Positions 7,401 through 10,400 of a stretch of 64,000 nt of DNA are shown piece after piece. The stretch covers positions 7,513,425-7,577,424 of the forward strand of contig CP154954.1 of the NCBI GenBank assembly GCA_039621445.1, written 5' to 3'. The notes under the pieces are model-generated. The model was not told the origin of the DNA, did not search any database, and saw nothing but the letters and a program-made list of their open reading frames with translations. This DNA comes from Euglena gracilis. Taxonomy: Eukaryota. A program made the translations under genes and the position numbers. Every line of letters starts with the position of its first letter. Within the stretch, counting starts at the first letter, position 1.

Positions 7401-10400
7401 TTGGACACACCCTTCGCAATTTTGGGGACTGTTGGCCTTTTTTATGCCAGTTTTGGCATTTTCAACCTGTTTGGTGGTCATCCAGAACAATTAACGAAAA
7501 CAACTACTTTAGAAAAAAAATGCAGTCCCAAAAAAAGCAAAAATTCACCCAATTCAAAAATTCAAAAAAGATCGCATTTGACTGGGGGGATGGTTGGTGG
7601 ACAAGTTGTTGGCCAAGGGCCGGGGCAACCCGCACGCCACCATCCCATCCCATTCCTGGCCAACGCTGCGGTTCGAAGGCAGGCAGGCGTTCCACATTGT
7701 CCCGATGCCGCGCCAGCCGGTGGACAGCAGCACCACCACCTCCAGCGCCTGGATGGCGGCGTGGGCGATCGGGTCAGGCCATTGCTAAAGCAGTCCCCCC
7801 CCCCCGGGGTCTGCTAGCCATTTTGCTGGACACCGGAAAAAGCAGGTAGACCACACCAGGGGGGGGGTCCCCCTACTGAAAAAAAAAATCTTCTGGTGTT
7901 GCGCGCGGAGGTGGAAATGGTTTTTAGTTGATTTTTTTTCCGGGTGATCTTGTTCAAAAAAAAAACCCAAAAAATGGGCATTTCTGGCAAGTTTTGGGGT
8001 CCAGAAAGAAATTCCACCAGCTGGCCCAGCGGATCCCCGCCCTGGGGGGAGGGGTCCACTGGGATTTCAGCCAAATTTGAACCAGCTGCAATCGAGACAC
8101 CCCCCAGGGGGGTACTGCAAATCCTTAAGCAATGGCCTGGACTGGGTGTTCCGCCTCCCGGTAGCCCACACAGCCGTAGTGGTTGGGGGACAGAGCAGCC
8201 CTCTTGGTGGGCGACTGCATGAATGGACGAAATGGTGAAAATGTCCCATCCTCCAGGATACATATTTGAGATAACAACCAATGCCACCCTCGTGCAAAAT
8301 TGTAAGAAGTAATCGGGGGTTAGATGTCTGTTTGTTACATAAAAAAACAACAACACTGACACAATGAAAAAAAAAACAGAACACTCAAGTTAAACTGACA
8401 AACGTCAGGAATGGCACGCCAAAAGCCCCTGAGTGAGCGAACCCCCCAAGGATTGTGGGCTATTCTTGGGCGGGCACAATGTTTGTGGCGGTCCAGGCCA
8501 GCACGGTGCCGAGGGCCACCGCCAGCTTCCGGTAGAACATCCGCTGCCCGAACGCGTCCCACTTCTTGTCCAGCACCTGCCGCACCTCCGCGCTGACGAT
8601 GAGGTCCAGCCGCGGCGCGTGGCCCCGGGTGGCCCTCATCGTGGTTTGACTGGGCGTTGAAAATTAGGCATCTCTGACGCAATCGGAATGCATGAGAGAC
8701 ACCAGGAGGATGGGCGTGCAGCGGGCCAGGCACATACTGTACTGTCGGCAGGTTCCTGGCGATCGATCAGCTTTGGTCAACCATGCCCTTGGGCCCAGCA
8801 TCGCCCGGCATCTTTCAGCATCGCACAGCATCGCCTTCAATACCTTCAATACCTGCATTCCCTGAAAAACTGCATCCACTCCGTCCACAACCTCACCTGC
8901 ACTCCATACACTTTTGTCCAATTTTGTTCACTTTTGACCACTTGCCCACTTTTGCCCACTTTTGCCCACTTTCGTCCGCTCTTGGCCACTTTTGGCAACT
9001 TTAGTTCACATTTGCCCGAATTCATCCATTGTTGGCCGTTTTTAGCCAGCCACAAGCTTCTTCCCCTCTCAGTCGTCACAAGCCTGGTTGGGATCAGGAA
9101 TATTTTTTTATATTCAGATAAAATGCCGCGTCGCACCTCTCCCACCATCTCGAACAAATTGCTGGATAACATTTCATTCACTTTGGGGGGGGGGGGGTTG
9201 GATGGTAAGGCCTTGAATTGTCGAAAATACCAGCGGAGAAAAACCCGAGGCAGGCACTGCGGGAATCCTTTGGTACCCTCCAGTCGTCTGCCAGAACACC
9301 CCTTCCCCGACCGCCTGCAACTATCCTGATCGGCATTCCCATCAATCTGCTTTCGGCGGCAGGATCCCAGCCAGGGCCACGGCGCTTGCTGCACGGGGCG
9401 GGGGATGCGGCTGTCCACCATTTTGAGGCACTGCGTGACGGGGCAGGCGGGGGCGGGGAGGTTCGCTGAATTAGAACAGCGGCAGCCACACCACACCCCA
9501 GCCCCCGGGGCATACCCCGCCTGGACAGGGCTTTGGGCCCCGGCACACAGGCAGCCGATCGCGGTGCGGATGGGGTCCTGCGACTCCGGGTGGAGGAACG
9601 GCTGTTCCAGGCCGCCGAGGGGGAACAGCTTGCAGGTGATGGGGCCAGGCGTGGGTTGGGGGAGGCACCCTGACGTGTGCAGCATTCCAAACCCCAGTTC
9701 TTCGGCCATGTGCCAGATTCGGCAAACATTTATCCTGTAAAACAAGAAGTAATTTGGGCAACTACAAATTCGAAAAATAACAATTAACATAAATAATAAA
9801 TATCATACAACGTATGCATAGAAATACACAAAATAATAAACATACAATAATAATAACGTAGAACAGGTGGACTCACCGGCAATTCAAAGGTGGTGGCCAT
9901 TTTGAAGCTTAAAAAAAAGAGTCAAAAGATGAGAGCGTGTTTGGACTCTTCAGACAACACATTCCTTCGATTTGCTGGGTTCCCAAACAGCAATACAGGT
10001 TCGAAAATACCCCAATTGTGGGTGTACAAAGAATACAACTGTTTTCACAACAAGTGATGAAAGCGCTTTAACAACACAAAGAACCTGTAAAAAAAGCAAT
10101 TCTGGGGAAGCACATTCATATTTTGGAAGCTGAATAAACCAAAAAAAATTAAAATATAAATGGAAATGGAAACGAAGAAAATGGCCACTGGAAGGAGGGA
10201 AATGTGAGCTCTTGAAATCGATTGGGGAGGTCTAACTTGGGTCCAGCAGCGCCTGTGCAGGACCGTAGTCCCATGCAATAACGGAGGACTTTGCAAGGAT
10301 GTGCTGAAGACGGCCGGTGGAGGCAAAATATGACGCTCAGCCAGGGAAGCATTTAAAGTGCCGGTTTGTGGGCAACGTGGAAAAGTTACTGCAGAGCCCC

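Follow-up and report, generated by a model that had tools for sequence, protein, structure and literature searches.

On its minus strand the window, that is, the whole 64-kb stretch of DNA analysed, contains a pair of colinear paralogs, genes A (~5.8-10.3 kb) and B (~49.7-55.0 kb). A search with one conserved exon led to the eukprot Euglena-transcriptome proteins EG_transcript_3144 and EG_transcript_820, both of which carry ankyrin repeats; the longer of the two also has a weak match to Ion_trans (20.8 bits, the cut-off being 25). Judged by these similarities, A and B look like genes for ankyrin-repeat, TRP-like cation channels. The two transcript proteins represent further paralogs, C (EG_transcript_3144) and D (EG_transcript_820). 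At the protein level identity amounts to 84% between C and A (over 228 aa), 76% between D and B, and 72% between A and B. The Ks value between A and B is 0.58. When metagenomes were searched with 22 nt of the conserved exon, a single locus (L001) was returned; it had no tblastn similarity to P0001/P0002 and was discarded as a chance match. The spliced reading frames of A and B are both open over 731 nt. Seven intron positions are common to the two genes, thus these seven introns predate the duplication, and only the position of the intron at 7770-8142 is specific to A. The features discussed below are collected in Table 1.

Table 1. Features of the A-specific intron, its paralogous empty site and the MITE-like elements of the window (positions in the window; sequences of the intron features on the gene strand)
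Feature	Position	Strand	Description	Basis or flanks
NC intron	7770..8142	-	373 nt	RNA joint 7769->8143, none in DNA run X2
Gene A exon piece 5' of the intron	8143..8184	-	42 nt	joints 8184->8472 and 7769->8143
Gene A exon piece 3' of the intron	7662..7769	-	108 nt; 3' border slides by 1 nt (joint 6927->7661, both=1)	joints 7769->8143 and 6927->7661
Gene B single exon (= 42+108 nt of A)	51379..51528	-	150 nt	homology and open frame
Upstream copy of the 8-bp repeat	8140..8147	-	ACCCAGTC, ACCCA|GTC (5 exon + 3 intron bases)	
Downstream copy of the 8-bp repeat	7767..7774	-	ACCCGATC, ACCCG|ATC (5 intron + 3 exon bases)	
5' arm of the TIR	8124..8139	-	CAGGCCATTGCTTAAG	fits CAGGS-N7-TAAG
3' arm of the TIR	7775..7790	-	CTTTAGCAATGGCCTG	against 5' arm 12/12, extended 15/16
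MITE-like element b1	43659..43948		274 nt at 43667-43940; TIR CAGGCTTCTTTTTAAG, 16/16	flanks TTCAGGGG / TTCAGGGG, 8/8
MITE-like element b2	23491..23748		242 nt at 23499-23740; TIR 14/16	flanks CCCCTGGG / GCCCTGGG, 7/8
MITE-like element e1	28482..28892		395 nt at 28490-28884; TIR CAGGGTTCGATATAAG / CAGGGTTTGATATAAG, 15/16	flanks CGGATGGG, 8/8
MITE-like element e2	44755..44891		121 nt at 44763-44883; TIR same as e1	flanks CCCTGAAT, 8/8

Expression data were taken from six runs guessed to be RNA and from four raw RNA runs chosen by species label. Transcript contigs of two studies (runs X15 and X16, both guessed to be RNA), mapped on 5500-10500, contain the exon joint 7769->8143 and skip the 373 nt in between (X15 record 1 and X16 record 5). 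The joint has 'both = 0' in each contig, i.e. it cannot slide and the cut is unambiguous, and the same contigs join further exon pieces, four in the X15 and three in the X16 record. The joint was absent from the DNA run X2, which carries the intron (records 12 and 13). The raw RNA run X21 speaks neither for nor against the joint: its depth on gene A was ~0-0.1, with zero reads at the joint. The intron borders predicted in an earlier, sequence-only reading of this DNA were thus exact, and a cDNA junction at another position, which would have refuted that reading, was contradicted by the joint lying exactly at 7769|8143.

Read on the gene strand, the intron has the sequence GTC-CAG-GCC...GGC-CTG-ACCCG and is followed by the exon base A (exon ATCGCC...). 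The borders are GT...CG (CG..AC on the plus strand), i.e. non-GT-AG, and a conventional (spliceosomal) intron was rejected because the 3' border is CG and not AG. Knock-in mutagenesis in Euglena has yielded the code 5'-N3CDG-/-CH'GN5-6|R for nonconventional (NC) introns (PMC12501133), and CAG and CTG have been described at +4..+6 and -8..-6 of such introns (PMC11282704). The intron at 7770-8142 has CAG at +4..+6, CTG at -8..-6, spacers of N3 and N5, and a purine, A, opening the downstream exon. It is an ordinary euglenid nonconventional intron, and its membership in this known class, with ends that fit the published code (PMC12501133), had gone unrecognised in the sequence-only reading. Gene A has eight introns with RNA support in 5500-10500, none of them with GT-AG borders; six, among them the A-specific one, agree with N3-CAG...CTG-N5/6 in some register, and one of these six pairs poorly. 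Among the remaining two, one has N3/N4 spacers and the other is of the type GTG...CAC. The seven introns of gene B, whose borders are based on homology, all have the same geometry, with GTG...CAC at the same position too.

In gene B the exon is uninterrupted. Alignment and the open frame give 150 nt in one frame, equal to the 42+108 nt of A, and the sequence of the empty site, at 51484-51491, is TCCCAGTG, in agreement with the earlier description; the empty site used for comparison is that of paralog B and not of an allele. The junction codon is Ile in A and C, and Val in B and D. Since C, the paralog closest to A, has Ile at this codon, the match between the intronic GT of A and the exonic GT of B may be a coincidence. 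An exon of exactly 42+108 nt is also what would be expected if the intron were as old as the other seven, i.e. pre-duplication, and had been lost precisely from B, for example by recombination with spliced cDNA, while selection for splicing kept the stem and the repeat of the copy in A. We consider such a loss unlikely. Just one of the eight introns is missing in B, and in the tubulin genes, where 15 NC gains were inferred, losses were reported for conventional introns only (PMC3935182).

The two ends of the intron form an inverted repeat. The perfect 12-bp repeat claimed from the sequence was found as described: 7775-7786 and 8128-8139 are complementary at 12/12 positions, and the repeat can be extended to arms (7775-7790 and 8124-8139) complementary at 15/16 (94%). 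The element measures 365 nt between its TIR ends, and in the window the terminal 12-mer occurs exactly at these two sites only. With the cut fixed by RNA, the chance of 12 consecutive pairs starting from +4/-6 is ~4^-12 by our own arithmetic. When the whole intron was folded, the terminal helix appeared in the MFE as well as in the centroid structure (z = -3.86, with 0 of 100 shuffles equal). The view of the perfect TIR as a mere relic of insertion did not hold, because pairing next to CAG/CTG is needed for splicing in Euglena NC introns (PMC12501133), and the TIR could therefore have been kept, or could have evolved, by selection. This requirement for pairing is also a point in favour of precise loss from B. 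Against the loss speaks the length of the stem: with 12 perfect pairs and 15/16 overall it exceeds the stems of all 14 shared introns of genes A and B, which reach at most 9 perfect pairs and 13/16. The longer stem fits a later origin than that of the other 14, though the stem is under selection.

The flanking 8-mers ACCCAGTC and ACCCGATC match at 6/8 positions, as had been claimed. For random window pairs outside microsatellite blocks the probability of at least 6/8 matches at a fixed register is P = 0.0065. However, flanking repeats of 6/7 or 6/8 were also found in 2 of the 14 older introns shared by A and B, which favours precise loss and shows that the repeat alone marks neither transposition nor youth and is a weak clock. 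The description of the intron as young and caught in the act was thus overstated, considering the imperfect repeat, the equal scores of these old introns, the Ks between A and B and the role of the stem in splicing; in addition, X2, a second DNA run, contains the intron. Assuming that both mismatches are in the intronic halves, they amount to ~0.25 changes per neutral site, about half of Ks(A,B). This value applies if the original target was identical to the present mRNA octamer, in which case there is one change per intronic half (2/8 sites) and the error is wide. With a Ks of 0.58 between the paralogs, the insertion could have taken place shortly after the A/B duplication, and the intron at 7770-8142 is not demonstrably young.

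The window was scanned for CAG...CTG pairs located 50-2500 nt apart and having arms complementary at at least 13/16 positions; with a low-complexity filter 33 pairs were obtained. Flanking 8-mers matching in register at at least 6/8 positions were found for five of the 33, namely the A-specific intron and the MITE-like elements b1, b2, e1 and e2. In twelve shifted registers the count was 0 except for shift -1 (one case, an element with a 7-nt repeat) and shift -3 (four cases, consisting of another repeat family and a poly-G case). In a scan for perfect stems (at least 8 bp, starting with CAG, 54 pairs) flanking repeats were enriched weakly, and imperfect arms had to be allowed. Elements b1 and b2 are 70% identical over their full length, and e2 is a relative of e1 with an internal deletion. 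Within both pairs the homology extends no further than the TIR ends, and each copy has flanking 8-mers of its own, which is the mark of transposition with 8-bp target duplication. With their 8/8 duplications, b1, e1 and e2 are better candidates for recent insertion than the A-specific intron. In silico removal of b1 and b2 gave no convincing restored coding frame.

The 5' arm of the intron (CAGGCCATTGCTTAAG) and the TIRs of the b family (CAGGCTTCTTTTTAAG) and the e family (CAGGGTTCGATATAAG) share the 16-bp end design CAGG[C/G]-N7-TAAG, and the elements with this design have G/C-run hairpins inside their ends. The motif CAGGS-N7-TAAG, typical of the b, d and e elements and fitted by the 5' arm of the intron, has 11 matches in the window, this arm among them, against 0.89 expected; nine of the 11 served to define the motif, and the two independent matches are at 23452-23467 and 43604-43619. 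Ten of the 14 shared introns start with CAGG[C/G] as well, as precise loss of an old intron would have it, but the 5' arm of the A-specific intron has in addition the MITE-typical TAAG at positions 13-16, and the 11 motif matches include no arm of a shared intron. Because the ends match those of multi-copy MITE-like elements carrying clean 8-bp duplications, insertion of a MITE is the best reading of the intron. Of this reading, which had already been proposed from the sequence, the end design stood well; the flanking repeat of the intron itself is imperfect.

BLAST with the intron and with its 40-nt ends detected no second copy of 7775-8139 in the 64-kb window, yielding only homopolymer-run matches and an exact match of 19 nt (7794-7812 = 23701-23719) that lies inside b2. 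The interior had been said to have the texture of the neighbouring MITEs: G/C and A/T runs are indeed present, as is the 19-nt match, whereas the similarity to the families is weak, because the z values of 3-8 obtained with the b and e families refer to shuffles that destroyed the homopolymer runs. Three X16 contigs match this DNA up to exactly 8139, the last base of the TIR, and continue in unlike, mutually different sequences, which hints at other copies with that terminus. Circular RNA was rejected as the source of these loose ends, since a circle would join 8142 to 7770. The joints listed include no circle junction 8142->7770, and the raw RNA depth on gene A was near zero. No transposase was found among the 139 window ORFs of at least 128 aa, and these long ORFs matched 0 Pfam families. 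Likewise, no Pfam match was obtained for the ORFs overlapping the element (7299-7814, 7382-7846 and 7817-8389).

The lack of a second copy in the window and of a transposase in these ORFs also speaks for a gain in A that involved no transposase, i.e. with a staggered double-strand break repaired with filler DNA, leaving an 8-nt repeat, the stem having arisen by chance or by later evolution. The 8-nt repeat of the recently gained NC intron of E. agilis gapC has been interpreted in this way (PMC4770533). For the intron studied here we regard break repair as very improbable: random filler is unlikely to carry a 15/16 TIR that fits the CAGGS-N7-TAAG of unrelated multi-copy elements, those elements have a different 8-bp duplication for each copy, as is characteristic of transposition, and in the X16 contigs the shared terminus runs precisely to the end of the TIR.

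Taking into account where the intron is excised, how its ends fit the code, the predicted helix, the lack of the intron in B and the MITE families with the same ends and 8-bp duplications, the overall best explanation is an NC intron that most likely began as a MITE and was inserted in the A lineage after the A/B split. We infer the insertion event, its timing and the type of transposase, and the equation of the 3+5 excised nucleotides with an 8-bp duplication is our own. At the DNA level, the intron would have begun as a non-autonomous MITE of a superfamily still present in the window, whose members have a 16-bp TIR with CAGG[C/G]-N7-TAAG, carry G/C-run hairpins inside their ends and duplicate 8 bp of the target site. 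Insertion of this MITE into the exon would have taken place in the lineage of gene A, once A and B had separated. At the RNA level, a helix of 12-16 bp initiated by CAG...CTG is predicted to pair the two intron ends. The upstream cut falls 3 nt ahead of CAG and the downstream cut 5 nt past CTG, where a purine follows, and the flanking exons are joined. By analogy with published work, excision would be carried out by a non-spliceosomal or unknown machinery that releases a circular intron; circular excision of NC introns has been described (PMC12501133, PMC11282704). The NC cut takes out the element together with 3+5 = 8 flanking bases, as many as make up a single copy of the duplication, so that the reading frame would have been restored from the start (the mRNA here being ACCCA+ATC) and the insertion tolerated.

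A more general reading can be offered tentatively, as one that may well prove wrong. The NC code could mirror, at the level of RNA, a single DNA-transposon superfamily whose copies in this genome include clean and apparently recent ones. Insertions of such elements into exons, mostly in either orientation, might then be born as precisely excisable introns. NC introns would perhaps be 'introners' with a non-spliceosomal, helix-guided excision, of which 7770-8142 would be an aged and b1, e1 and e2 would be fresh representatives. The origin of NC introns has been an open question in the field. The window brings together an RNA-verified, A-specific NC intron, multi-copy elements with the same ends, and the fit of 3+5 nt to an 8-bp duplication, and the surrounding elements make the hypothesis of MITE origin directly testable.

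MITEs of the hAT superfamily produce 8-bp target duplications, have short TIRs beginning with CAG or TAG, and belong to transposons with the target preference nTnnnnAn; the P and Merlin superfamilies also make 8-bp duplications. The elements described here resemble hAT MITEs in their 8-bp duplications, in their 16-bp TIRs starting with CAGG, in their small size and in having no coding capacity. They differ from them in that the duplications in the window do not obviously follow nTnnnnAn, and no hAT transposase was seen among the window ORFs. P and Merlin stay candidates besides hAT.

NC introns, their lineage-specific gain, TSD-like repeats at their junctions and the MITE hypothesis are all in the literature (PMC3935182, PMC4770533, PMC6221363, PMC11282704, PMC12501133, PMC12621601). 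Frequent gains have been reported, among them that of a gapC intron which is specific to one strain and has direct repeats of 8 nt (PMC4770533, PMC3935182). A MITE origin has been proposed since 2014, in a paper which also noted that euglenid genomes had up to then yielded no identified transposable element (PMC3935182), and in reviews NC introns are depicted with TIR and TSD. Since both a MITE origin and a recently gained intron with an 8-nt repeat are on record, the intron at 7770-8142 is one more example. In the literature searched, supplementary tables aside, euglenid MITE families with NC-compatible ends were not named, nor was the equality of 3+5 nt with an 8-bp duplication or a link between NC introns and hAT found.

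Compared with the euglenid NC introns studied by Tessier, Canaday, Milanowski and, recently, Nomura et al. 2025 (PMC12501133), the borders, spacers, pairing, purine and junction repeat are the same and nothing essential differs, apart from the stem, which exceeds in length those of the 14 neighbouring introns. That the 5' end has the canonical GT is due to chance, and in the older literature such an intron would have been labelled 'intermediate/nonconventional' (PMC3935182). Intron 4 of gapC in E. agilis ACOI 323 (Milanowski et al. 2016, PMC4770533) is likewise an NC intron, specific to a copy or strain and bearing an 8-nt junction repeat. In contrast to the intron studied here, it is polymorphic within a species and hence of truly recent origin, and the repair of a double-strand break was held responsible for its repeat (PMC4770533), whereas we compared old paralogs (Ks 0.58) and found a repeat of 6/8. 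The introners of Micromonas, Aureococcus, dinoflagellates and others (PMC11282704) are, in the same way, MITE-like elements with TIR and a duplication that is partly used to restore the frame. A large family of near-identical intron copies was not seen for this element in the 64-kb window. The canonical GT/GC-AG sites that define spliceosomal introners are lacking in 7770-8142, whose 3' border is CG. Introners are removed by the spliceosome via GT/GC-AG, whereas here the borders are non-canonical and removal would depend on the terminal helix of the element itself.

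Contigs of X15, a run guessed to be RNA, were aligned to 5500-10500 of gene A. A single contig (record 1, 8143-8300) lacks the focal intron as well as three introns downstream of it, yet retains 116 nt of the intron upstream of the focal one (8185-8300). The contig looks like an incompletely processed transcript and may be informative about the sequence in which introns are removed. In the DNA run X2, contigs were joined at two places within the focal intron, 7841 to 7973 (131 nt skipped) and 7999 to 8123 (123 nt skipped). The depths at these joints were 35 and 69, near or below single-copy level; the joints may represent internal deletion alleles or related copies.

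The window also contains MITE-like elements and further inverted-repeat elements with CAGG ends (see the table). The two family e copies share the terminal inverted repeat (TIR) CAGGGTT[C/T]GATATAAG; one is 395 nt long, the other, which carries an internal deletion, 121 nt. Each is flanked by a perfect 8-bp duplication, and the two duplications differ in sequence (CGGATGGG and CCCTGAAT). These copies are the window's best candidates for recent transposition. In family b the TIR is CAGGC[T/A]TC[T/C]TTTTAAG. Inside the ends lie hairpins made of G/C runs, the centre holds a GGCGC..GCGCC hairpin, and the 8-bp flanking duplications are TTCAGGGG (8/8) and C/GCCCTGGG (7/8). The third, partial copy is degenerate, its left end reading CAAGCTTCGTTTTAAG. 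The terminus CAGGGGTTTTCTTAAG (minus strand) was found at both 23452-23467 and 43604-43619, preceding b2 by 31 nt and b1 by 47 nt on the upstream side; it could be the solo end of another family or mark a preferred landing zone. The repeat flanking the 1598-nt CAGG-ended element is 7 nt long, or 8 nt when the final base of the TIR is included.

Features located in the window
Feature	Position	Remarks
GTG...CAC intron, gene A	8614-9383	homologous to gene B intron
GTG...CAC intron, gene B	52683-53414	homologous to gene A intron
CAGG-ended inverted-repeat element	480-1159	680 nt; TIR 16/16 (CAGGGCAGAACGGGAA); embedded in poly-G
CAGG-ended inverted-repeat element	24785-26382	1598 nt; flanked by CTCAGAA repeat
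Family b, copy b2	23491-23748	MITE-like
Family b, copy b1	43659-43948	MITE-like
Family b, partial copy	~36372-36520	MITE-like
Family e, copy e1	28482-28892	MITE-like
Family e, copy e2	44755-44891	MITE-like
Repeat block	13586-16800	
Repeat block	41823-43123	
Repeat block	62914-64000	

The three repeat blocks comprise long microsatellite blocks (GAA/CAA and TATG/TAGA), a tandem array of ~7 units with a 163-bp repeat length and, at the window end, an array with a 10-nt period. Degenerate CCCTAA-type (telomere-like) tracts lie at 11638-11767 and 34676-34745.

Between the paralogs, the exon at 8472-8613 in gene A is 93% identical to its counterpart in gene B (52541-52682) and includes unbroken matches of 58 and 35 bases, in contrast to a Ks of 0.58 over the whole aligned coding part. 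Such similarity could reflect gene conversion or strong constraint at the nucleotide level.

The genes also share a homologous intron, which in gene A is 770 nt long and contains a very high-copy repeat (8673-9006): the summed X2 contig depth in two bins of this segment was ~74,000 and ~11,000, compared with ~90 elsewhere. In gene A and gene B alike, GTG...CAC replaces CAG...CTG at the code positions of this intron. It is a swapped closing pair, retained in both paralogs, and falls outside the CDG/CH'G code published for Euglena nonconventional introns.
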